Source: an uncultured Gammaproteobacteria bacterium
GTDB taxonomy: Bacteria; Pseudomonadota; Gammaproteobacteria; DRLM01
Direction: 5' to 3'
DNA: 64,000 bases
Assembly: GCA_963729605.1 (NCBI GenBank)
Contig: CAVSNY010000006.1
Coordinates: 288,001-352,000 of the forward strand
The position numbers and the translations under genes are program-made. The notes beneath the pieces are model-generated. The model worked only from the letters and a program-made list of their open reading frames with translations, was not told the origin of the DNA and ran no database searches. Positions 6,144-64,000 of the stretch are shown one piece after another (position 1 is the first letter of the stretch; each line of letters starts with the position of its first letter).

Positions 6144-6440
6144 TTACTGGGCACCCGCAAACTCGATATCGAAACCCGGCTTCAACTTAACGTAAGCCTT
6201 TTTGCTATGGGAGCGGCGGCCGAGCATCTGGCCAAAGCGTTTCACCTTGCCCTTGCTGTTCACCACGCGAACCTGATCCACTTCCACGCTGAACAAATGC
6301 TCGACCGCCTTTTTGATCTCATCCTTGCTGGCGTCGCGCATCACCTTGAACACGAACTGGCGATCTTTGTCCGCCGCCATCGTGCTCTTTTCCGAGACGT
6401 GGGGCGCCAGCAGCACCTTCATCAAACGTTCATTGCTCAT
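6144..6440 (-). CDS. rplW: 50S ribosomal protein L23
   Basis: [19 protein letters not shown]...KKAYVKL; start trimmed to 6440, overlapping rplD stop. Confidence 0.96.
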
Positions 6441-7054
6441 GCCAGGCTCTCCCCGATTTGTTTGGCGGCGCCGGCGGTAAGCAGCACCTTGTCGAACTTG
6501 ATCAAACACACCGGATCGATCTCGAGCACGTTGCGCACTTCGACCTTGTGCAGATTGCGCGCGGCCAGATACAAGGCCTCGCTGGCGTCGTCGGCGACGA
6601 TCAACACATTGTCCATGCCCAGCGCCTTCAGCTTCGCCACCAGATCGCGGGTCTTAGGCTGTTCTAGCCCCAGATCCGACACCACCACCAAGCGGTCCTG
6701 GCGCAGCAGTTCCGAAAAAATCGAACGAAGGGCGACCTTGTAGGATTTCTTGTTGACCTTCTGCGAATAGTCGGCGGTCACCGCGGCAAACACTTTGCCG
6801 CCACCGCGCCACAACGGGCTGCGGATGGTACCGGCGCGGGCGCGGCCCGTGCCTTTTTGTTTAAAAGGCTTGGCGCCGCCGCCGCGCACCGCGGCGCGCG
6901 TCTTCTGCGCATGGGTACCGGCGCGGGCGCCGGCCAAATAGGCCGTCACGACTTGATGGACAAGGCTTTCGTTGAACTCGCGTCCGAACACCTCATCCGG
7001 CACCGCGACACTGCCAGCGCTGGCGCCGGCCGCATTGAGTATGCTGAGTTCCAT
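6437..7054 (-). CDS. rplD: 50S ribosomal protein L4
   Basis: [19 protein letters not shown]. Confidence 0.97.
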
Positions 7055-7710
7055 TACTTCTCTCCTCTCGCGGCGAACTTCACCGACGCACGCACGATCA
7101 CGTCGCGGCCTTCCGAACCGGGAACCGCGCCTTTGATCAGCAGCAGATTGCGTTCGGCATCCACCCGCACCACTTCCAGATTCTGCTGGGTACGCTGGGT
7201 ATTACCCAGATGACCGGCCATCTTCTTGCCGACGAACACCCGGCCCGGGGTCTGGCGCTGACCGATAGAACCCGGCGCGCGATGCGACAGCGAGTTACCG
7301 TGGGTCGCGTCGCCCATGGTGAAGTGATGACGCTTGACGGTACCGGCGAAACCTTTACCGAGCGACACGCCGGTGACGTCGACTTTTTGTCCGGCCTGGA
7401 AAATATCCACCTTGAGTTCGCTGCCCGGCGCCAGATCGGCACCTTCGCCTTCGCCCAAACGAAATTCCCACAAACCGCGACCCGCATTGACCCCGGCCTT
7501 GGCGAAGTGCCCGGCCATGGCCTTGGTCACCCGCGACGGACGGCGCGTGCCCACGGTGATTTGCACCGCCGCGTAGCCGTCGGTCTCCGCGCTCTTCACT
7601 TGCGTGACGCGATTCGGTTCGACCTCGACCACGGTCACCGGAATGCTCACCCCATCTTCAGTGAAGACGCGGGTCATTCCGCATTTGCGACCAACTAGTC
7701 CGATTGCCAT
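7054..7710 (-). CDS. rplC: 50S ribosomal protein L3
   Basis: [24 protein letters not shown]; start trimmed to ATG 7710. Confidence 0.97.
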
Positions 7711-8123: not shown

Positions 8124-9314
<1,191 letters not shown>

Positions 9315-24912: not shown

Positions 24913-26103
<1,191 letters not shown>

Positions 26104-42361: not shown

Positions 42362-42475
42362 TACCAGGAAGGAGGGGTATATACTGCGACGGCGTAAGTC
42401 CATCCCCATATCAACCCATGGTCCTTATTGTCGAGATCGCCTCATGGAACGAATCTGACAGCATGGAGGTGTCGT

Positions 42476-43192
42476 ATGGCTTTACAAAAACCAGAGCACA
42501 ACAATCTTCTCGCCGCCCTGCCCGAGCCCATACGCGGGCGGCTGTTTCCGCATTTGGAATTAGTAGAGATGCCGCTTGGCGAGGTCCTTTACGAATCCGG
42601 CTGCCAGTTGCACTACGTCTATTTCCCCACGACCTCCATCGTGTCTTTGCTTTACGTCATGGAAGATGGCGCATCGGCCGAGATTGCGGTGGTGGGAAAG
42701 GAAGGCATACTCGGCGTCGCCATTTTCATGGGCGGTGAAACCACCCCGAGCCGGGCCATCGTACAGAGCGAAGGCCACGGATTCCGGCTCAAGGCGCAGT
42801 TGCTCAAGGATGAATTCAATCGTGCCGGACCGATGATGCATCTATTGCTGCGTTACACCCAGGCGCTGATTACCCAGATGTCGCAGACGGCGGTCTGCAA
42901 TCGGCATCATTCCGTACATCAACAACTGTGTCGCTGGCTGCTGTTGAGCCTGGACCGACTGCCTTCGAGCAAACTGACCATGACTCAGGAATTGATCGCC
43001 AATATGCTCGGCGTGCGCCGCGAGGGAGTTACGGAAGCCGCCGGTAAATTGCAAAACGCCGGGTTGATACTCTACAGTCGCGGACAAATCACCATTCTCG
43101 ATCGGCAGGGACTGGAGGCGCAGGCCTGCGAGTGCTATCAAGTGGTCAAAAAGGAGTTTGATCGCCTGCTCCCCGACCTGATGGCCGAGTAA
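42476..43192 (+). CDS. Crp/Fnr-family transcriptional regulator 1
   Basis: NNLLAALP, VYFPT, AVCNRHH, LCRWLL, HTH TQELIANMLGVRREGVTEAAGKL, ACECY; start at ATG 42476 after GGAGGT. Confidence 0.92.
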   Translation: MALQKPEHNNLLAALPEPIRGRLFPHLELVEMPLGEVLYESGCQLHYVYFPTTSIVSLLYVMEDGASAEIAVVGKEGILGVAIFMGGETTPSRAIVQSEGHGFRLKAQLLKDEFNRAGPMMHLLLRYTQALITQMSQTAVCNRHHSVHQQLCRWLLLSLDRLPSSKLTMTQELIANMLGVRREGVTEAAGKLQNAGLILYSRGQITILDRQGLEAQACECYQVVKKEFDRLLPDLMAE

Positions 43193-43270: not shown

Positions 43271-43662
43271 GAATTTACCGCCGCTTCGGCTCAAGCTTAG
43301 CGAGGATTATGTTAGCGAACCAGGATGTATTCTAAAAAGTGCGCCGCCTTTTCGCGCGCGGGAGAGTCTCTCTTAATATAGGCTAATATAGGCGGCACCG
43401 CTGAGGCTGCTAATAGCAGCACGGGCGCATGGGGGGCCGATAAAGGACGCTCCGTTTTTAACAAAGCGTAAATTCAGATAAGACCGAATTACACGCTTCC
43501 CGATCAAATTGCTAGTCGGCCCCTCTTACCAAAATATTGCGCATCGGGTCGGAGACCCTTTTATCCGGCAAACTCCATCCGAAATCAGGATTACATCGCG
43601 TACATGGCCCGCACCGCCCGTTGGCTTTAGACCCGACGCTACAGGAGATTCCTACCCCCACT

Positions 43663-44357
43663 ATGCACGCTCCTCATACCAATCGTCTGCTTACCGCGCT
43701 GCCCCCCAGGATCGGAAACACTTCCTTGCGAGCTGCGAACAAGTCGAACTCGTGTTCGCCGACGTGCTCTGCGAACCGGGCGACCCTATCCGTCACGTTT
43801 ACTTCCCCACCGACAGCTATATTTCTTTGGTTAATCCGATCGATCGCGACACCCGCCTGGAGGTGGCACTGGTAGGTAATGAAGGCATGCACGGGATTGC
43901 CCTGGTACTGGGAGTGAATATTTCACCGCTGCACGCCTTGGTGCAGGGCGATGGTTCCGCGTTGCGCATCAGCGCCGCGCCGTTTCGCCGTCAACTCCAG
44001 CACAGCCCGGCGCTGCAACGGGGTCTGAACAGCTACATCTATGTGCAAATGAGCCAACTCGCGCAGACGGCGGCCTGCACCCGTTTTCATGTGGTCGAGG
44101 CGCGTCTCGCCCGCTGGCTGTTGATGACCCACGATCGAGCGCATTCGGACGAACTGCATATCACCCAAGAATTTCTCGCCTCCATGCTGGGCGTGCGTCG
44201 GGTCGGCATCACCAAGGCCGCCGGCTCACTGCAAAAACGCAAACTGATCAACTATAGCCGCGGCACCATCACGGTTCTCAACCGCGGCGGCCTGGAAGCC
44301 GCTTCTTGCGGGTGTTATCAGGCCGACAAGGCAACGTACACCCGCATCATGGGCTAG
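43663..44357 (+). pseudogene. Crp/Fnr-family regulator 2, split by a 1-nt deletion in a C6 run (real or assembly error)
   Basis: [14 protein letters not shown] in one frame, QDRKHFL...[21 protein letters not shown]...SCGCY in another; junction GCCCCCCAGG at 43701-43710. Confidence 0.75.
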
Positions 44358-44705: not shown

Positions 44706-44922
44706 GAAGGCGGTGGACGAATATGCGATAAGTACGGACGGCATGATAACCCGTCTTATCGCACTGATCCGATTTTGCATTAACGCCGGTCAAAGTGATG
44801 CTCACCCAGCCGCGAAGCCCGGCAACAGCGAAAGTCAAACATTGAAAAAACACATCGGCATAAACACCGGCAAAGAGCCGGTCGATTTTTTAACGATTCT
44901 GCCAGAGTAAAGAGGGTTGCAA

Positions 44923-46755
44923 ATGAAAAATTTCGAAAGCATTACTAAACTACCGACGCAGTTCATGACATTACTGTTGATTATATTAATGGCGGCATGC
45001 GAAGGCGGGCGAGATCCCATCCTAGGCGGGGGCGGTAGTCTCGCCGCACTCGCGCCGACGGTGACTGCCGTCGCCCCGGTCAATAACGCCACCGGCGTAG
45101 CGATCAACACCCTCATCACCGCCGCTTTTAATGAACCGATGGCCCCCCTCACCGGCGCGGCAAGCTTCACGGTGACGTGCGCGGCGCCTTGCACCGATCC
45201 CACGGGCACGGTAGCCCTCGACGCCACAAACAGGATTGCCAGCTTTACTCTTGCAAGCACAACCACCCTCGCGCCCTCCACCCTCTATACGGTCACGGTC
45301 ACCGGGGCTCGCAGTCTCGCCACAGGCCTGGCATTGGCGAGCCCCTATGTATGGCGCTTTACGACGGGCGTCACGTCGGACACCACCCGGCCCACAGTGA
45401 CGTCTACCGCCCCTGCCGACGGTGCTACCGACGTTGCGATCAACAGGAGGGTCACCGCGACGTTCAGTGAAGACATGAACCCGGCAACGATCACCGGAAC
45501 CAGCTTTGCGGTGACGGGGCCCGGCACAACCGGGGTAGCAGGCACGGTGAGCTACACTGTCGGTGCCAGAACCGCGATCTTTACGCCGACAGCCAATCTG
45601 CCAGACGGCGTCTTGTTTACTGCCACGCTTAACACGGGAAACGCGGATCTGGCCGGCAATACGCTGGCGGTTAACAAGGTATGGACCTTTACAACCGGTA
45701 CGGCCGCAGATACCACCGCACCCACGGCGATTCTGGTGAATCCCGCCGATCTTGCCACGGCCGTGGCAGTCAACAGTGCCGTCAACGTGACGTTCAGCGA
45801 GGCAATGGACCCGTTAACGATCAGCACGGCCAGCTTTATGGTACAAGCCAGCGGCCCCCCGCTGGGTCCAACATTAGCAGGGTCGGTCAGCCATGATCCA
45901 CTGACCCATATTGCAACCTTTACGCCCTCAAGCGATCTCGCAGTCAATACCGCGTATACAGCCACGGTTACCACCGAAGCCACCGACTTGGCGGGAAATG
46001 CGCTTGCGGTTAACAAAATATGGAGTTTTACAACTGCAGCAGCAGCGCCGGTGATACAAACCGCGGTAAACCTGCAATCGGTCGCACCGTTCGGCGCGGC
46101 GGGTGGCGCGGGGATCACCAGCTGCGGGAATACCGTGATTACGGGTGATGTCTCGACCACCTCCGCATCGACTTTAGTCACTGGATTAACCGATGGGAAC
46201 GGACTCGGCAACTCCTATACGATCGCGGGTTGTCCGGGAATAGTAGACGGAAAGATCTATACCGCCCCACCACCGCCCGGAGACGCAGATTCACTGGCGA
46301 TCGCAACTCAGGCCCAAGATGATGCGCAAACCGCGTTTGATGCCACCTCGCCCGCGTCAATGCCGGGGGGAATAAGTCAGGCCGCCGAACTCGGCGCGCT
46401 AACCCTCGCCCCCGGTATCTATACGTCGGGAACCTCGTTTGAGATAACCACCGTGGATCTCACCCTCGACGCCCAGGGCGACGCGAATGCCGTCTGGATA
46501 TTCCAGTCACCGAGCACGCTCACCGTGGGAGTCAATGTCAACGTTATTCTGACCAACGGCGCCAAGGCCAAGAATGTTTTTTGGCATGTCGGCAGTGCAG
46601 CCACTATCAACGCCGGCGCGGCGATGCAAGGAACCATCCTAGCCTTTTCAGGCGTCTCGATGGGTACCGGCGCGACGCTGGAGGGCAGGGCCATATCCCT
46701 GGTCGGCGGCCCGGTTACCTTGCTGAGCAACATTATCAACGTGCCTGCCCCGTAA
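44923..46755 (+). CDS. Lipoprotein with three Ig-like (Big_5/SbsA-type) repeats and a C-terminal DUF3494 ice-binding-like domain
   Basis: Lipobox LMAAC; 3x PTV/PTA...ATxVAxN...FxExM...WxFTT; C-terminal LAPGIY, LDAQGDANAVWIFQ, NGAKAKNVFWHVGSAAT, GTILA. Confidence 0.85.
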   Translation: MKNFESITKLPTQFMTLLLIILMAACEGGRDPILGGGGSLAALAPTVTAVAPVNNATGVAINTLITAAFNEPMAPLTGAASFTVTCAAPCTDPTGTVALDATNRIASFTLASTTTLAPSTLYTVTVTGARSLATGLALASPYVWRFTTGVTSDTTRPTVTSTAPADGATDVAINRRVTATFSEDMNPATITGTSFAVTGPGTTGVAGTVSYTVGARTAIFTPTANLPDGVLFTATLNTGNADLAGNTLAVNKVWTFTTGTAADTTAPTAILVNPADLATAVAVNSAVNVTFSEAMDPLTISTASFMVQASGPPLGPTLAGSVSHDPLTHIATFTPSSDLAVNTAYTATVTTEATDLAGNALAVNKIWSFTTAAAAPVIQTAVNLQSVAPFGAAGGAGITSCGNTVITGDVSTTSASTLVTGLTDGNGLGNSYTIAGCPGIVDGKIYTAPPPPGDADSLAIATQAQDDAQTAFDATSPASMPGGISQAAELGALTLAPGIYTSGTSFEITTVDLTLDAQGDANAVWIFQSPSTLTVGVNVNVILTNGAKAKNVFWHVGSAATINAGAAMQGTILAFSGVSMGTGATLEGRAISLVGGPVTLLSNIINVPAP

Positions 46756-49610: not shown

Positions 49611-50933
49611 TTGCCAGACGCCAAAAAAGATCAACAGTTCGTCAACTGGTTTCGCCACTCTTCACCCTACATCAACGCCTTTCGCGGGCGCACTTTCGTC
49701 ATCACCTTCGGCGGCGAGGCGGTGGCGGACCACCATTTCGCCAGCCTGATCCACGACATCGCCTTGCTCAACAGCCTGGGCGTGCGGCTGGTGCTGGTGC
49801 ACGGCGCGCGGCCGCAGATCGAACAACGCTTGAACGAACGGGGCGCGGACATCCGTTATGTGAACGGGTTGCGGGTCACCGACGCCACCGCGCTGGCCTG
49901 CGTGAAAGAGGCGGTGGGCACGCTGCGGGTGGAGATCGAGGCCCTGCTGTCGATGGGCCTCGCCAATTCGCCGATGGCCGGCGCGCGTATCCGCGTCAGT
50001 TCGGGCAACGCGGTCACCGCCAAACCGGTGGGGGTGCGTGACGGGGTGGATTACTGCCACACCGGCGAGGTACGGCGCATCGACGCCGAGGCGATTCGCC
50101 AGCAGCTCAACGAGGGCGGACTGGTGTTGCTGTCGCCGCTGGGTTACTCGCCGACCGGTGAAGTCTTCAATCTCACCGCTACCGAAGTCGCCACCGCCAC
50201 CGCGGTGGCTTTGAAGGCCGACAAACTGATCAGCCTCATCGAAGCGCCCGGTGTCGCCGGGCCGCGCAAACGCCTGCTCCGCCAACTCACCCTGCCCGAG
50301 GCGAAACGGGTGCTGGCGCAGCCGGGCGTATTCAGCGAAGAGGTATTTACCCATTTGCAAAGCGCGTTGCGCGCCTGCCAGAACGGCGTGCGGCGCGCCC
50401 ATCTGCTGGACCGCCACATCGACGGCGGACTGCTGCTGGAACTGTTCACCCGCGACGGCATCGGCACCATGATCACCGCCGATATCTATGAAGGCACCCG
50501 CCGCGCCACCATCGACGACATCGGCGGCCTGCTGGAGCTGATCGCGCCCTTGGAAGCGGCGGGAATATTGGTGCCGCGCTCACGGGAACGGCTCGAGATC
50601 GATATCGAGCACTTCACCGTGGTGGAACGTGACGGGACCATCATCGCCTGCGCGGGCTTTTATCCCTTCATCGAAAAGAAGGCGGCGGAAATCGCCTGTT
50701 TCGTGGTCCATCCGGATTATCAAGATCTGGGGTACGGCTCGGCCTTGCTCGAACAACTGGAGACCGAGGCGCAATTGTTGAACATCACCCGGATATTCGT
50801 ACTCACCACCCGCACCTCCCATTGGTTCCGCGAACGCGGCTTCGCGCCGGGCAGCTTGCAGGATCTGCCGGTGGCGCGGCGGCGCTTGTACAACTACCAA
50901 CGCAATTCTAAGATTTACGTGAAGACGCTGTAA
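49611..50933 (+). CDS. argA: Amino-acid N-acetyltransferase
   Basis: WFRHSSPYINAFRG, VHGARPQI, ELFTRDGIGT, GNAT domain ending YNYQRNSK. Confidence 0.95.
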   Translation: MPDAKKDQQFVNWFRHSSPYINAFRGRTFVITFGGEAVADHHFASLIHDIALLNSLGVRLVLVHGARPQIEQRLNERGADIRYVNGLRVTDATALACVKEAVGTLRVEIEALLSMGLANSPMAGARIRVSSGNAVTAKPVGVRDGVDYCHTGEVRRIDAEAIRQQLNEGGLVLLSPLGYSPTGEVFNLTATEVATATAVALKADKLISLIEAPGVAGPRKRLLRQLTLPEAKRVLAQPGVFSEEVFTHLQSALRACQNGVRRAHLLDRHIDGGLLLELFTRDGIGTMITADIYEGTRRATIDDIGGLLELIAPLEAAGILVPRSRERLEIDIEHFTVVERDGTIIACAGFYPFIEKKAAEIACFVVHPDYQDLGYGSALLEQLETEAQLLNITRIFVLTTRTSHWFRERGFAPGSLQDLPVARRRLYNYQRNSKIYVKTL

Positions 50934-51054
50934 GGACGCGGGTGGTTTTTCCGAGGACTTCGCACAATACACGTTTGCGGCTTCGCGCCCGCCAGAAACA
51001 TCCGCGGGCTCCGCGGGATTAAACGCGACGGTATGATGGGTGTAAATCCGACAC

Positions 51055-51086
51055 AAAATAAAAGGGCCAGGCATCCGCCCTGGCCC
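51055..51086 (-). terminator. Rho-independent terminator of the candidate ncRNA
   Basis: Minus strand GGGCCAGG-GCGGATG-CCTGGCCC-TTTTATTTT. Confidence 0.8.
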
Positions 51087-51333
51087 CGGTTCATGCCCCG
51101 ATGGGGGCACTTGGTTTGACCCATCGACTGATGGGTGACTAGGTGGACTTGCCTGTCCTAAGGACCATCTCCCACGAACCCGCCGTTGCCCGCCGCACCA
51201 ACCACAACACCCCGACGATCATTGTCTTGGGTTGATCGGGCCGCCGGTCACAACCGTCCGTTTCAAACGTCCTCCTTGTCAAGTGAACAGAGCAACGTCC
51301 CTGATTCCACACCCACGCTGATCAGCGAGGTGT
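51055..51333 (-). ncRNA. Candidate structured small RNA (~280 nt), family unassigned
   Basis: Own promoter (TTGACC-17-TAAACC), several hairpins, repeated GGA motifs, terminal intrinsic terminator, no long ORF. Confidence 0.6.
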
Positions 51334-51339
51334 TCTTAA

Positions 51340-51368
51340 GGTTTAGTAGACGATGGACAAAGGGTCAA
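51340..51368 (-). promoter_or_regulatory. Sigma70-like promoter of the candidate ncRNA
   Basis: TTGACC (51368-51363), 17 nt spacer, TAAACC (51345-51340). Confidence 0.55.
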
Positions 51369-51404
51369 GTCTGGGGGAAATCCCAATAGGATCGGGCGCG
51401 GAAT

Positions 51405-53675
51405 TTATTTGCCCGCCCGCACCAGGCCGCCCAGCCCGGCGTCCACCAAGGCGCGCTCGAGGTGCAGGCGGACCGTGTCGGCCCCTTCGCAGGCCAGGGC
51501 AACCGACAGCAGTTCACGGGCGCGTTGCTGAGTAAAATTGCGCAATACCCACTTCACCCGCGGCAGACTGGCCACGCTCATGCTGAGATTGTCCACCCCC
51601 ATGCCCAGCAGCAAAATCGCCGCCACCGGATCGCCCGCCATTTCACCGCAGATGCCCACCGGTTTGGCTTGAGCGTGGCCGGCGGTCACCACGTCTTGTA
51701 TGGCCTGCAACACCGCCGGATGCAATGCGTCGTACAAGCCGGCGACGCGGGAGTTGTTGCGATCCACCGCCAGCAGATATTGGGTAAGGTCGTTGCTGCC
51801 GATGGAGAGAAAATCCACCCGCCGGGCGATGGCCTCGGCTTGATAGACCGCCGAAGGCACTTCCACCATGACGCCTAGCGGCGGCATGACTACGTTCTCA
51901 CCTTTCTCGCGCAATTCGCGGTAGGCGCGTTCCACCAGCCGTTTGGCTTCATCCACTTCGGCGAGTTGGCTGACCATCGGCAACAACAGGCGCAGATTGT
52001 CGAGGCCCGCGCTGGCGTGCAGCATGGCGCGCAGCTGCACCATGAAAATTTCCGGATGATCGAGGGTGATGCGGATGCCGCGCCAACCGAGAAACGGATT
52101 GTCTTCGGTGATGGGAAAATACGACAGCGGCTTGTCACCGCCCACATCCAGGGTGCGCAACACCACCGGCCGCGGCGCGAAGGCCTCCAGCACTTGGCGA
52201 TAGATCCGCCGCTGTTCCTCTTCGCCGGGAAAACGATCGCGGATCATGAAGGGAAATTCGGTGCGGTACAAACCGATGCCTTCCGCGCCGTTGGCCAGCG
52301 AGGTCGAGACATCGGAGATCAAACCGGAATTGACGTACAAGGGCAGGCGCACGCCGTCGGGGGTCTCGGCGGGCAGGTCGCGCAAGTCCTGCAAACCGGC
52401 CACCAGCTCCGCTTCCTCGCGGGCCAGCCGGGTGTATTCGCTGCGCACCGCCTCGGACGGGTTCATGTAAACCCGGCCGCGATAACCGTCGACGATCAAC
52501 GCCCGCCCGTCCATGCGCCCCACCGGCAGATCGTCGGCACCCACCACCGACGGCACGCCCATCGCCCGCGCCAGAATCGCCACGTGGGAGGAACGCGAAC
52601 CGCTGGCGGACACCACCGCCACCAACCGTTCGCGCGGCACCTCCGCCAGCATGGTGGCGGTGATCTCCTCGCCGACCAGGATGGTCCGTTCGGGATAAGG
52701 CGGCGCCTTGCGCCGGCCCGCGCTCTGTAGACAGACCAATATTCGCCGGCCGAGGTCACGGATGTCGCCGGCCCGTTCGCGCAGGTAAGGTTCGTCCATG
52801 TCCTCGAACACCCGGGCGTGTTCATGGACGGTGTCGCGCAAGGCGCCGGAGGCCCAATTGCCGGCGCGGATGCGTTCCAGCACTTTGTCGACCAGGCTGC
52901 CGCTGCTCAGCATCAAGCCGTAGGCGTCGAACAAGGCCAGTTCTTCGGCGCTGAGGTGCAGGCTGAGCCGCTCGCCCCAGGTTTGAATCTCGCCCTGCAC
53001 CATGCCCACCGCGGTTTTGAAGGCGATGATTTCGGCATCGACGTCGGTGATCTTGCGATCGGGCACCGCGTCCAGATCCGCGGGCGGATAGATGACCATC
53101 GCCGTGCCGATGCCCACCCCCGGCGCGCCGGCCAAGCCATCGACCACGCCGCCGTCGAACGCGGTACCGCCATCACCCACCGGACCGATGCCGCCGCTCG
53201 CTTCGGCATGAGCGAGGGCGCCGGCCAGCTGCGCGGCCATGGTCACCAGAAACGCCACCTCGTCCTCGGCGAATTTGCGGCGCTCGCGCTGCCGCACCAC
53301 CAGCACGCCGAGCAGCTTGCGGTGATGAATGATGGGGACACCGAGAAAGGCGTGGTAATACTCCTCGCCGGTCTCGGCGACGAAGCGGTAGCGGGGATGA
53401 TCGGGGGCGTTGTCGAGGTTGAGCGGTTCGGCGGCGTCGGCCACCACGCTCACCACACCCTCGCCCATGGCCAGCGATACCCGGCCCACCGCGGCGGGAT
53501 TCAAACCGTCGGTGGCCATCAGGACGTGGCGGCGCTGGGTGTAATCGGCGAGATACACGGAACACACGTCGGCGGCCATGGCCTGTTTGACGCGTTTTAC
53601 GATGATGGCGAGGGCTTGCTCGAGATTACGGGCACTGGCGACTTCTTGAACGATGCGCCGCAAAACGTCGAGCAC
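51405..53675 (-). CDS. ptsP: Phosphoenolpyruvate-protein phosphotransferase EI-Ntr (GAF domain)
   Basis: N-terminal GAF, SHVAILAR, GLYRTEF, RTLDVGGDK, GSNDLTQY, CGEMAGD. Confidence 0.96.
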   Translation of the reverse strand: MLDVLRRIVQEVASARNLEQALAIIVKRVKQAMAADVCSVYLADYTQRRHVLMATDGLNPAAVGRVSLAMGEGVVSVVADAAEPLNLDNAPDHPRYRFVAETGEEYYHAFLGVPIIHHRKLLGVLVVRQRERRKFAEDEVAFLVTMAAQLAGALAHAEASGGIGPVGDGGTAFDGGVVDGLAGAPGVGIGTAMVIYPPADLDAVPDRKITDVDAEIIAFKTAVGMVQGEIQTWGERLSLHLSAEELALFDAYGLMLSSGSLVDKVLERIRAGNWASGALRDTVHEHARVFEDMDEPYLRERAGDIRDLGRRILVCLQSAGRRKAPPYPERTILVGEEITATMLAEVPRERLVAVVSASGSRSSHVAILARAMGVPSVVGADDLPVGRMDGRALIVDGYRGRVYMNPSEAVRSEYTRLAREEAELVAGLQDLRDLPAETPDGVRLPLYVNSGLISDVSTSLANGAEGIGLYRTEFPFMIRDRFPGEEEQRRIYRQVLEAFAPRPVVLRTLDVGGDKPLSYFPITEDNPFLGWRGIRITLDHPEIFMVQLRAMLHASAGLDNLRLLLPMVSQLAEVDEAKRLVERAYRELREKGENVVMPPLGVMVEVPSAVYQAEAIARRVDFLSIGSNDLTQYLLAVDRNNSRVAGLYDALHPAVLQAIQDVVTAGHAQAKPVGICGEMAGDPVAAILLLGMGVDNLSMSVASLPRVKWVLRNFTQQRARELLSVALACEGADTVRLHLERALVDAGLGGLVRAGK

Positions 53676-53700: not shown

Positions 53701-54234
53701 TCAACGCGGCAGCGCGTCATAACCCGTCTCTGTCGCCGCCAAGTCCGGCGCATCTCCAATATGCCGCCTCAGCAAGGGCGCCAGCTCGCGCAGGGCGCGG
53801 GTGTAGACCCGCCGCTTGAACGGCACCACGTTGCGCACCGGATACCAGTAGCTCACCCATCGCCAGTGATCGAACTCCGGCCGCTCGCTGAGATTCAAGC
53901 AGACATCGCTGTCGTCGGCGGCCAGCCGCAGCAGATACCACACCTGCTTCTGGCCGATGCACACCGGCTTGTCGTGATGGCGGATCAAACGGCTGGGCAG
54001 GCGATAACGCAACCAGCCGCGGGTATTGCCCATCACTTCAACGTGCTCGGGCAATAAACCCAGCTCTTCATTCAGCTCGCGGTACAAGGCCTCTTCGGGG
54101 GTCTCTTCGCAGCGGATGCCACCCTGCGGGAACTGCCATGCGTCCTGGCCGATGCGGCGCGCCCACAATAGGCGGCCGCGATCATTGCTGAGAATGATCC
54201 CGACATTCGGCCTATATCCTTCTAGGTCAATCAC
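53701..54234 (-). CDS. rppH: RNA pyrophosphohydrolase
   Basis: [24 protein letters not shown] Nudix box, IGQKQ, PEFDHW; upstream of ptsP. Confidence 0.96.
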
Positions 54235-60633: not shown

Positions 60634-60829
60634 ATACCTTTCCTTCTCCTCAACTGGCGGGGGACGGGGCCGATACCCAGGCACGAATCATCGATCGCAC
60701 TCCGGCACCCCGTCACATTGTGATGTTATCGAGCGTGTCCTCGGGTCGCGCGCGCTAAAGGCCGATGAGGAATGACCGATACTCCCTTAGGGATTTGCAT
60801 CCCGCAGTGTCGTCTTGGAGAAGACAAAT

Positions 60830-62848
60830 ATGCTCGCAAGGGTGGATAACGAAGCGGAAAAACAGGGCCATTTCAAGGATCAGATGCGGGCCTACGACCG
60901 CTGGAAGGCCGAGGTCGCCCACGCTATTGAGGAATACAGGCAGTGGCTGGAAGACCACCGCATGGGGACCCCGGAAATCGAACTGCGTATCCACGACAGT
61001 ATCGAAAGTCTGCGCGGCGACCGGCTGGTGATCGCCTTCGTCGCGGAATTTTCGCGCGGCAAGACCGAGCTGATCAACGCGATTTTCTTCTCCGATTATC
61101 AACGCCGCCTGCTGCCTTCCGACGCGGGCCGCACCACCATGTGCCCGACCGAGTTGTTTTACGATCAGCAGAGCGACGAGGCGTATATTCGCCTGCTGCC
61201 CATCGAAACCCGCTTGGAAGACATCAGCATCTCCGAATTCAAGAAGCAGCCCGAACGCTGGACCACCATCTCTCTCGACGTCAATTCACCCGACCAAATG
61301 GCCGAATCGTTGCGCGAGGTGGTCAAGGTCAAACGCGTATCGGTGGACGACGCCAAGAAACTCGGCCTCTACACCGAGGAATTGCACAACCACTTCAAAG
61401 ACGATGACGACATCGTTACCCACTTGGATATCCCGATGTGGCGTCACGCGTTGATCAGTTTCCCGCACCCCTTGTTGCAGCAAGGGCTGTCCATCCTCGA
61501 CACCCCCGGCCTCAACGCCCTCGGCAGCGAGCCGGAACTGACCTTGAGCATGTTGCCCAACGCCCATGCGGTGCTGTTCGTTCTGGCCGCCGACACCGGC
61601 GTGACCCGCAGCGACATGGACATGTGGCAGTTCCACATCAAGACCTACCGCAAAAACGGCCACAAGGGGCTGGTGGCGGCGCTCAACAAGATCGACACCT
61701 TGTGGGACGAGATGAAAAAACCGGAAGAAGTGGACGAGTCGGTCCGTCATCAATGCGCCGAAACCGCGCGGCTGCTGGGCATCGAACCCGGCAGTGTCTT
61801 TCCGGTGTCCGCGCAAAAGGCCCTGGTGGGCAAGATCCGCAAGGACCATGCGCTGCTCGCCAAGAGCCGCTTGTTGGATTTGGAAAGTTATTTGGCGGAT
61901 AAAATTTTACCGGCCAAACAAGTCATCGTCCGCGACACCATCGTCGGCGCCATCGATCAGATGATCTCCGGCTCGCGGCAGATGGTGACTCAACGGCTGG
62001 AGGCGGCGCAAACCCAACTGAGTGAATTGCGTTCCTTGAGCGGACGCAACGCCGACGTCATCACCGGGCTGATGCGCAAGACCCGCGAACGGCAGGCCGC
62101 CTACAATAAAAACATGGAGAGCTTTCAAGCCAGCCGCCGCATCCTGGCGCAACATTCCAAATCCATGCTCGACGCGCTGAGCATCAAGTCCGTCGACGAC
62201 CTGGTGGCGACCACCCGCAAAGACATGGAAGGCAGTTGGACCACCGGCGGCATGAAGGGCGGCATGAAAACCTTCTTCGACGGCGCTCGCGATACCATGC
62301 AACATGTCGGCACCCTCGCCGAACAGACCCAAAACGTGGTGCAGGCGATTTACCGCAAATTTCACGAGGAGCACGGTCTGCCGATCGGCGAGCTCAAGAC
62401 CTATTCGCTAAAAAAATACCGCATCGAACTGGAACGGCTTTACGAAGAGGCGGAAACCTTCCGCAACAGTCCGATCACCACCATGACGGAACAACATTTC
62501 GTCATCAAGAAATTCTTCATCTCATTGGTGAGCCACGTCCGCCATTTATTCATGAAGGCCAATCGCGAGACCGACGCCTGGCTGAAGGGCATTTTGATCC
62601 CGCTGGTGCGGCAGGTGAACGAGAACAAACAACAACTCGATCAGCATCTGGAAACCCTGTGCAAGATCAATGAATCGCGCGACGGACTCGACAGTAAAAT
62701 CCGCGAGCTGGAGAAACGCTGCACCTTGCTGGAACGCGAACGCGACACCCTCAGCCACATCATCGAACGCCTGCACACCCCGCTCCCCGCCGCCGTGCAC
62801 ACGCCGGACGCCGGCGACGAGGCGCGGGTGACGCGCGCGGCGGGCTGA
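60830..62848 (+). CDS. Bacterial dynamin-like GTPase
   Basis: AEFSRGKTELIN (G1), RTTMCPT (G2), DTPG (G3), NKID (G4), PVSA; long helical/coiled-coil C-terminus; start could be 60815. Confidence 0.82.
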   Translation: MLARVDNEAEKQGHFKDQMRAYDRWKAEVAHAIEEYRQWLEDHRMGTPEIELRIHDSIESLRGDRLVIAFVAEFSRGKTELINAIFFSDYQRRLLPSDAGRTTMCPTELFYDQQSDEAYIRLLPIETRLEDISISEFKKQPERWTTISLDVNSPDQMAESLREVVKVKRVSVDDAKKLGLYTEELHNHFKDDDDIVTHLDIPMWRHALISFPHPLLQQGLSILDTPGLNALGSEPELTLSMLPNAHAVLFVLAADTGVTRSDMDMWQFHIKTYRKNGHKGLVAALNKIDTLWDEMKKPEEVDESVRHQCAETARLLGIEPGSVFPVSAQKALVGKIRKDHALLAKSRLLDLESYLADKILPAKQVIVRDTIVGAIDQMISGSRQMVTQRLEAAQTQLSELRSLSGRNADVITGLMRKTRERQAAYNKNMESFQASRRILAQHSKSMLDALSIKSVDDLVATTRKDMEGSWTTGGMKGGMKTFFDGARDTMQHVGTLAEQTQNVVQAIYRKFHEEHGLPIGELKTYSLKKYRIELERLYEEAETFRNSPITTMTEQHFVIKKFFISLVSHVRHLFMKANRETDAWLKGILIPLVRQVNENKQQLDQHLETLCKINESRDGLDSKIRELEKRCTLLERERDTLSHIIERLHTPLPAAVHTPDAGDEARVTRAAG

Positions 62849-62916
62849 GTCGAACCCCGCCGCGTTTTCACGGGAACGGTCTATTTAATCGAATTAAATC
62901 AGAACAAAAAATTAAT

Positions 62917-63011
62917 CACGGAGGAGCATCGAGGACGCGCCCTGCGTCGAAATCATCCTATAGTGAATGCGCCGCATGCCTCGACAATTCTCATTCTCCG
63001 TGTCCTCCGTG
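62917..63011. repeat. CACGGAG...CTCCGTGTCCTCCGTG intergenic element
   Basis: Second copy of the element at 60245-60315, between convergent genes. Confidence 0.5.
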
Positions 63012-63102
63012 ATTCGCATCCGCGGGTTTTTAAGTTTAATGCGCGAGACATCAACCGCCACTACGCCGATTCGGCGCTTCACCATTCACCCCGCAAACGC
63101 CG

Positions 63103-63876
63103 TTAAATTTCGCCGTGGTATTCCATGATCAGCGGTGCGTGATCGGAAAACCACTGTTCTTTATAAATCGCCGCCGAGATGATTTTTTCTTTTAGGCGCG
63201 GATTGACCATGTGGTAATCGATGCGCCATCCCACATTTTTTTCCCGGGCGCGGCCGCGATTCGACCACCAGGTGTATTGCTCGGCGGCCTCGTTGACGGC
63301 GCGGAACGCGTCGATCCAGCCGACTTGTTCGAACACATGATCCAGCCAGGCCCGCTCCTCCGGTAAAAAACCGGAGTTCTTTTGATTGGAACGCCAGTTC
63401 TTCAAGTCGATGGGTTTATGCGCGATGTTCCAATCGCCGCAGATGATGTAGTCGCGATCGCTGTCGCGCAATTGTTGCAGCACCGTGAGAAAACGCGCCA
63501 TCACGTCGAACTTCACCGCCTGCCGCTCCGGGCCGCTCGAGCCCGAAGGCAGATACAAGGACACCACGCTGAGATTGCCGAAATCCACTTGCAGGTAACG
63601 GCCCTCGGCATCCACGTCGGGCCAGCCCAGGCCGACCTGCACGCGGTCCGGTTCGCGCCGGCAATAGACCGCCACCCCGCTGTAGCCCTTCTTCTGCGCA
63701 TCGTGGAAATAACCGTAATAACCCGGCGGGCGCAACACCTCGGGCCCGAGCTGATGCACTTGCGCCTTGGTTTCCTGGAGGCAGACCACGTCGGCGTCCT
63801 GCTTGAGCATCCAGTCGAAAAAACCCTTGCCGGCCGCGGAGCGGATCCCGTTCAGATTGGCGGTGATGATCTTCAT
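63103..63876 (-). CDS. xth: Exodeoxyribonuclease III-family AP endonuclease (Crc-syntenic)
   Basis: ANLNGIR, LQETK, GYSGV, YLPSG, GDWNIAH, GWRIDY, SDHAP; start trimmed to ATG 63876. Confidence 0.88.
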   Translation of the reverse strand: MKIITANLNGIRSAAGKGFFDWMLKQDADVVCLQETKAQVHQLGPEVLRPPGYYGYFHDAQKKGYSGVAVYCRREPDRVQVGLGWPDVDAEGRYLQVDFGNLSVVSLYLPSGSSGPERQAVKFDVMARFLTVLQQLRDSDRDYIICGDWNIAHKPIDLKNWRSNQKNSGFLPEERAWLDHVFEQVGWIDAFRAVNEAAEQYTWWSNRGRAREKNVGWRIDYHMVNPRLKEKIISAAIYKEQWFSDHAPLIMEYHGEI

Positions 63877-63980
63877 AAAACTGTTCCGTGGGCGGTGACA
63901 AAGCCGGCGAGTGTAACAAAAACGTATCCGGCCGGGCGCGGCGCGTTTCCCTCGCGAGAAGGAATCGTTACAATGACGCC

Positions 63981-64000
63981 ATGCTGCCATATCAAAAAGA
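63981..64000 (+). CDS. pyrE: Probable start of orotate phosphoribosyltransferase (runs off window)
   Basis: ATG CTG CCA TAT CAA AAA = MLPYQK, like PyrE N-termini; divergent from the xth/crc-like gene as in known synteny; only 6 codons visible. Confidence 0.5.

Follow-up and report, generated by a model that had tools for sequence, protein, structure and literature searches.

A possible lineage-specific non-coding RNA in the convergent ptsP-argA spacer of an uncultured gammaproteobacterium

The minus strand of the spacer between ptsP and argA is best read, tentatively, as the source of a lineage-specific non-coding RNA with a few CsrA-type sites, either standing alone or derived from the 3' untranslated region (3' UTR) of ptsP. 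Almost as likely is a long 3' UTR without function, in which nothing separate is made: the tail of ptsP and the terminators of two convergent genes would fill the spacer, and chance alone would have produced the CsrA-like motifs and the match to a promoter. The evidence that bears on these two readings, and on three others that we consider far less probable, is set out below.

Genomic context of the spacer

The window, that is, the whole stretch of DNA analysed here, comprises 64,000 nucleotides. Within it ptsP, encoding enzyme I of the PTS-Ntr (51405-53675, minus strand; NCBIfam NF008283, 836 bits against a cut-off of 583), and argA, encoding amino-acid N-acetyltransferase (49611-50933, plus strand; NCBIfam NF003641, 660 bits against a cut-off of 344), converge on a spacer of 471 nt (50934-51404). 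ptsP, whose stop codon occupies 51407-51405, is the same-strand upstream gene of the candidate RNA, and rppH (53701-54234) lies upstream of ptsP. The wider neighbourhood contains ilvD, sulfate adenylyltransferase/APS kinase, pilT, proC, xth, a GGDEF-EAL protein and two Crp-family regulators; the surroundings of the spacer are ordinary chromosome. No second copy of the spacer region was found within the window; it is therefore no repeat element, which counts for the non-coding RNA. Spacers of 350-700 nt are also present elsewhere in the window, a point in favour of a functionless tail. Literature searches found no published RNA at the ptsP-argA locus. Re-reading of the sequence located all the motifs quoted in an earlier note on this DNA, on the minus strand and where that note had placed them.

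Several other features of the window were recorded. The two regulators of the Crp/Fnr family are adjacent on the plus strand (42428-43192 and 43509-44357), each combining a cNMP-binding domain with a Crp-type HTH. The identical strings GGGGTGTGCCGGCCGCCTT, TTCGACGAGGTCGAG and GTCGACCATGTCGGC occur in both 8344-8903 and 25133-25692, about 16.8 kb apart; judging from the letters, this points to a duplicated segment, probably a pair of tuf genes next to the str operon and the tRNA cluster. The plus-strand frame 44917-46755 encodes a 612-aa protein, the C-terminal part of which resembles an ice-binding protein family at 76.9 bits, far below the cut-off of 400.

Terminator, promoter-like site and predicted folds

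On the minus strand a terminator scan identified an intrinsic terminator at 51087-51055, GGGGCCAGG(GCGGAUG)CCUGGCCCU followed by UUUAUUUU. Its stem-loop (51087-51063) has nine pairs, seven of them G-C, and a loop of 7 nt, with the tail UUUUAUUUU reaching to 51055; the earlier note had credited the candidate with its own terminator, and the scan confirmed a strong one. Six terminator-like sites occur in 50500-51900 against 1.2 +/- 1.2 in shuffles, and the scan gave no other minus-strand site between 51404 and 51087. The terminator at 51087-51055 is the first after ptsP and lies 318 nt past its stop codon, whereas for three further strong terminators of the window the distance from the gene is 65-90 nt (6833 after 6743, 33195 after 33120, and 40977 after 41042). 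This distance counts for a separate unit such as a lineage-specific non-coding RNA and against a functionless tail. An imperfect, G+C-rich minus-strand hairpin of 11 bp at 51393-51419, whose loop contains the ptsP stop codon, is followed only by a weak U-rich stretch; it was considered as the ptsP terminator and rejected, its z of -0.07 being no better than shuffles.

The promoter-like site TTGACC-17-TAAACC (51368-51340, minus strand) lies 37 nt past the ptsP stop codon. Its -35 hexamer (TTGACC, 51368-51363) is good and its 17-nt spacer ideal; its -10 hexamer (TAAACC, 51345-51340) lacks the final T, and because of this missing T at position 6 the site was not called by the promoter scan. Two clear promoters in the window, for comparison, read TTGACA-17-TAAAAT and TTGACA-17-CAAAAT. 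The window contains 25 sites of the candidate's grade, where block shuffles give 31.8 +/- 5.0, so that this grade is not enriched. Judged by its hexamers, the putative promoter at 51340-51368 is weak and its match not above chance, and the own promoter asserted in the earlier note loses its footing. That the site escaped the scan and that its grade is not enriched count against the non-coding RNA reading, and the chance-level grade favours a functionless tail. In the opposite direction, the good -35 hexamer and the 17-nt spacer stand right before a significantly stable hairpin, which counts for the non-coding RNA; the position of this hairpin, exactly at the expected start of a transcript from the promoter-like site, speaks against a functionless tail.

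This hairpin, ACACCUCGCU(GAUC)AGCG-U-GGGUGU (51309-51333, minus strand), is present in every predicted fold and would form the extreme 5' end of any transcript begun at the promoter-like site. Taken alone it has a local z of -2.63, equalled by one of 200 shuffles. Further along the minus strand, the hairpin CGAUCA(ACCCAAGACAA)UGAUCG (51216-51238) and the small hairpin GUCC(UUA)GGAC (51155-51165) were read in the sequence, and ACCCAUC(AGUC)GAUGGGU (51119-51136) and UGCCCC(CAUC)GGGGCA (51094-51109) appear in the predicted folds. The last of these can form on both strands; on the plus strand it is a terminator-like site, followed by CTTGGTTTGA, and hence may be the terminator of argA.

The whole RNA of 286 nt is predicted to fold at -123.5 kcal/mol (z -2.89, equalled by one of 200 shuffles). 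In these models the folding signal is local, being confined to the hairpins at the two ends: the last 96 nt, which contain three hairpins, reach a z of -3.04 against shuffles, and neither the middle 131 nt (z -1.23) nor the entire first 101 nt (z 0.11) does better than shuffles. Such confinement counts against the non-coding RNA reading and agrees with a functionless tail, in which one of the terminal hairpins doubles as the plus-strand terminator-like site for argA. The features that rise above chance, the terminator and the terminal hairpins, are equally expected of an ordinary convergent spacer. An inverted repeat would also allow 51334-51319 to pair with 51221-51206 (16 nt, 81% complementary), bringing the 5' arm of the 5' hairpin to the 3' arm and flank of the hairpin at 51216-51238, around the ATG of a 27-codon ORF discussed below. 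Since 51221-51206 resembles the 3' arm of the 5' hairpin, the RNA could adopt either of two folds that exclude each other.

Coding capacity of the spacer

The earlier note had seen no credible long ORF here, and our searches agree. A 57-aa ORF with a GTG start (51139-51312, minus strand) has no homologue among 5.8 billion proteins, no homologue was found for a 67-aa ORF on the plus strand of the spacer, and none of the three spacer ORFs was matched in Pfam. Compared with 1.84 billion representatives, the 57-aa ORF gave a single match (E 2.3e-9) consisting of eight stretches to a 1417-aa translated tandem repeat, which is taken as chance. The absence of a credible homologue or family for the spacer ORFs counts for a lineage-specific non-coding RNA.

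Two smaller ORFs on the minus strand raise the alternative, which we regard as unlikely, that the RNA is the mRNA of small proteins. The first is a 15-codon mini-ORF (51219-51266) with a TTG start at 51266, 4 nt past AAGGAGG, which would make a perfect 7-nt ribosome-binding sequence; its TGA stop overlaps, as ATGA, the ATG start at 51222 of a 27-codon mini-ORF (51139-51222) that is the 3' part of the 57-aa ORF. AAGGAGG would serve the 15-codon ORF, and translation of the 27-codon ORF would be coupled to it by the overlap. The GC3 of the 27-codon ORF, 0.86, is like that of real genes in the window (about 0.8), and the 5' arm of the first hairpin is able to pair with the ATG region instead of its own 3' arm, which would also suit an mRNA. 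Other findings weigh against this alternative: the 57-aa frame lacks homologues and Pfam families, its sole match being the translated tandem repeat; no separate ribosome-binding site precedes the ATG of the 27-codon ORF; and the 27-aa peptide, with nine hydrophobic residues followed by RR and a polar tail, would form no membrane helix. The 15- and 27-aa peptides themselves fall below the length handled by search tools; the homology searches used the 57-aa frame. The 27-codon mini-ORF is probably not coding. A type I toxin-antitoxin system of the hok/sok kind, which encodes a small hydrophobic membrane peptide, was rejected on the same composition of the 27-aa peptide.

By analogy, the mRNA alternative would see in the two CsrA-type sites described in the next section, one of them on the ribosome-binding site, a leader repressed by CsrA as in hcnA. 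The hcnA type is a CsrA-repressed mRNA leader with one site on the Shine-Dalgarno sequence. The candidate is similar in having one consensus site upstream and one overlapping the perfect AAGGAGG before a start codon; it differs in that this is followed by mere 15- and 27-codon ORFs without homologues and then by the terminator, with no real gene to control.

CsrA-type sites and comparison with known RNA families

Three near-repeats, CAGGGACGUU, AAGGAGGACGUU and AACGGACGGUU, were read in the minus strand from 51303, 51277 and 51262, respectively. The RsmE/CsrA consensus given in PMC6849547 is A/U-CANGGANG-U/A. To this, UCAGGGACGU (51295-51304, minus strand) is an exact match and ACAAGGAGGA (51270-51279, minus strand), which includes the Shine-Dalgarno-like AAGGAGG (51277-51271), is a second; the third near-repeat, AACGGACGG (51254-51262, minus strand), agrees with the consensus at seven of eight core positions. 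The sites are 25 and 16 nt apart, the two exact matches being separated by 25 nt on the same strand, and all good sites fall within 50 nt, the remaining 230 nt of the RNA having none. Two exact matches make the binding of a CsrA dimer possible, and from the motifs one or two dimers could possibly bind the candidate sites.

Whether these motifs exceed chance depends on how they are counted. The trinucleotide GGA occurs eight times against 7.86 +/- 1.87 expected from 2000 dinucleotide shuffles, which is the chance level, and ANGGA three times against 1.52, so the multiple ANGGA motifs on which the earlier note had leaned are not enriched. GGACG, the core of the near-repeats, occurs three times against 0.63 expected, a count reached by 1.6% of the 2000 shuffles; this enrichment counts for the non-coding RNA reading. 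In the predicted folds the GGA near-repeats are located in stems or internal loops and not in hairpin loops, which together with the chance-level GGA count argues against that reading; the lack of GGA enrichment likewise favours a functionless tail.

The exact consensus matches in the whole window number 15 against 5.7 expected, and simple arithmetic from the observed rate gives about 0.24 chance same-strand pairs within 286 nt per window. A second same-strand pair does exist at 42657/42804, 147 nt apart and inside an ORF, which indicates that such pairs arise by chance in the window and counts against the non-coding RNA reading. Given both the expectation and this second pair, the pair in the spacer is suggestive and not significant. 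The ORF concerned is the first of the two Crp/Fnr-family regulators (42428-43192). Another 10-mer that matches the CsrA consensus, TCACGGAGGA, occurs at 62916-62925 (plus strand) and 63003-63012 (minus strand), about 80 nt apart, as an inverted repeat in the spacer on which a dynamin-family gene (60815-62848) and xth (63103-63990) converge. Of 75 distant loci, none has two consensus matches within 500 nt past ptsP, and four have one against about 3.5 expected. Two exact sites 25 nt apart count for the non-coding RNA reading and against a functionless tail; the absence of such a pair from the 75 loci also counts for the non-coding RNA, and it goes against a classical sponge.

The leading idea of the earlier note, a classical CsrA/RsmA sponge with multiple sites like CsrB, RsmY or RsmZ, appears improbable, most of the defining tests having failed. 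In its favour are the three sites of RsmE/CsrA type, two exact and one near, and the intrinsic terminator. RsmY/RsmZ/RsmX and CsrB/CsrC are, like the candidate, intergenic, non-coding and a few hundred nucleotides long, with an intrinsic terminator and sites fitting the RsmE/CsrA consensus. Unlike them, the candidate has no covariance-model match, only two or three good sites, crowded into 50 nt with the other 230 nt empty, no GGA enrichment and no motifs in hairpin loops. The GacA/UvrY upstream box of such RNAs has the consensus TGTAAG-N6-CTTACA. No box of this type was found near 51340-51500; with three mismatches allowed the window has 11 matches, all of them elsewhere. The missing box also counts against the non-coding RNA reading. 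With the GGA, fold, GacA-box and Rfam tests all failing, a classical sponge is not supported.

The comparison with known families was made at several levels. A search of the whole window with Rfam 15 at gathering scores returned four tRNAs and nothing at the locus; at E up to 10, the only match in 50850-51500 was a spurious lncRNA (E 0.34), and none of the CsrB/Rsm, CrcZ and 6S covariance models matched the locus even at this level. Rfam searches of the 16 closest of the listed loci (see below) gave nothing relevant. All 42 occurrences of the CrcZ-type motif AANAANAA in the window lie outside 51055-51340, which has none on either strand. The statement of the earlier note that the candidate lacks CrcZ-type runs was thus upheld, and no known RNA family matches it. 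The absence of a known family is also compatible with a functionless tail.

A closer likeness is found in sRNAs that derive from a 3' UTR and share the terminator of the upstream mRNA, such as the DapZ, CpxQ and SdhX types. Like these, the candidate immediately follows a same-strand protein gene, extends to the first terminator past that gene, and has a long U tail and an internal promoter-like site or possible processing. It differs in being longer than most of them (about 280-340 nt).

Occurrence in relatives

The 80 loci listed from a genome scan encode PtsP proteins that are at most 66% identical, relatives at 78-99% not being among them, and belong mostly to uncultured Gammaproteobacteria and Chromatiales, then to Alcanivorax, Pseudomonas and Legionellales. 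Searches of these 80 loci with blastn (word 7), nhmmer and tblastx for a homologue of the spacer gave nothing convincing, and sensitive blastn gave no match to the spacer in plasmid and phage collections. These negative results count against the non-coding RNA reading, and the lack of a homologue among the 80 listed loci at PtsP identities of at most 66% is consistent with a functionless tail. Closer PtsP relatives, at 99, 98, 89, 84, 80 and 79% identity, were found by protein search, some of them on NCBI contigs as long as 3.02 Mb; the named ones are all from metagenome-assembled genomes. The PtsP of the window itself lies on a single contig of 505,528 nt.

The gene order behind ptsP varies from locus to locus among the 80 listed loci, with argA near ptsP in one (L004), where other genes lie in between. 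In Pseudomonas an NRDE-like gene (MCLIVFAW...ANRDEF) is convergent to ptsP, at 6394-7140 on the minus strand of L075 and in matching places in L069, L074 and L076. The start region of this gene is the source of the sole weak DNA match to the spacer among the listed loci, and the spacer might on this account be the decayed remnant of a gene behind ptsP. This idea, which we rate very improbable, was rejected: the blastn match of the AAGGAGG/TTG region to the gene start in five Pseudomonas loci (68% over 72 nt, E 0.018) is not borne out at the protein level, where tblastn of the 248-aa NRDE-like protein against the window and the spacer found a mere ten-residue resemblance and tblastx of the spacer against the 80 listed loci gave nothing below E 0.008, the Pseudomonas gene and ptsP lie on opposite strands, and each close locus examined among those listed has different genes past ptsP.

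Proposed origin of the RNA and its implications

We propose, as the tentative best reading, that the minus strand of the ptsP-argA spacer would yield a lineage-specific non-coding RNA ending at the terminator at 51087-51055, by either of two routes. Transcription might start at the weak promoter-like site and give a discrete RNA of about 280 nt headed by the stable 5' hairpin; alternatively, the rppH-ptsP transcript would carry a tail of about 340 nt, from which a stable 3' fragment could be cut and accumulate. The stand-alone regulatory RNA of the earlier note survives in part in this proposal: the absence of an ORF of substance and of a known family and the real, distant terminator stand, whereas the promoter of its own does not. 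The first third of such an RNA would offer two or three CsrA/RsmA-type sites, with room for one or two CsrA dimers, far fewer than on a CsrB or RsmZ sponge. If the RNA is functional, its likeliest role would be that of a small 3'-end regulatory RNA.

A bolder version, which we rate a long shot, is that the rppH-ptsP operon ends in a lineage-specific CsrA/RsmA-binding RNA: transcription of the operon would release a small CsrA decoy, the 5' hairpin would shield this decoy from RppH-dependent decay, and the RNA might perhaps double as the mRNA of a tiny peptide. Were the decoy reading true, nitrogen-PTS signalling would be tied to the Csr network via a 3' UTR. Returning to the preferred reading, a lineage-specific non-coding RNA with few CsrA-type sites, if real, would be another lineage-specific sRNA in a barely studied and apparently uncultured gammaproteobacterial lineage, and possibly a CsrA-binding RNA from the 3' end of an operon encoding RppH and the nitrogen PTS.
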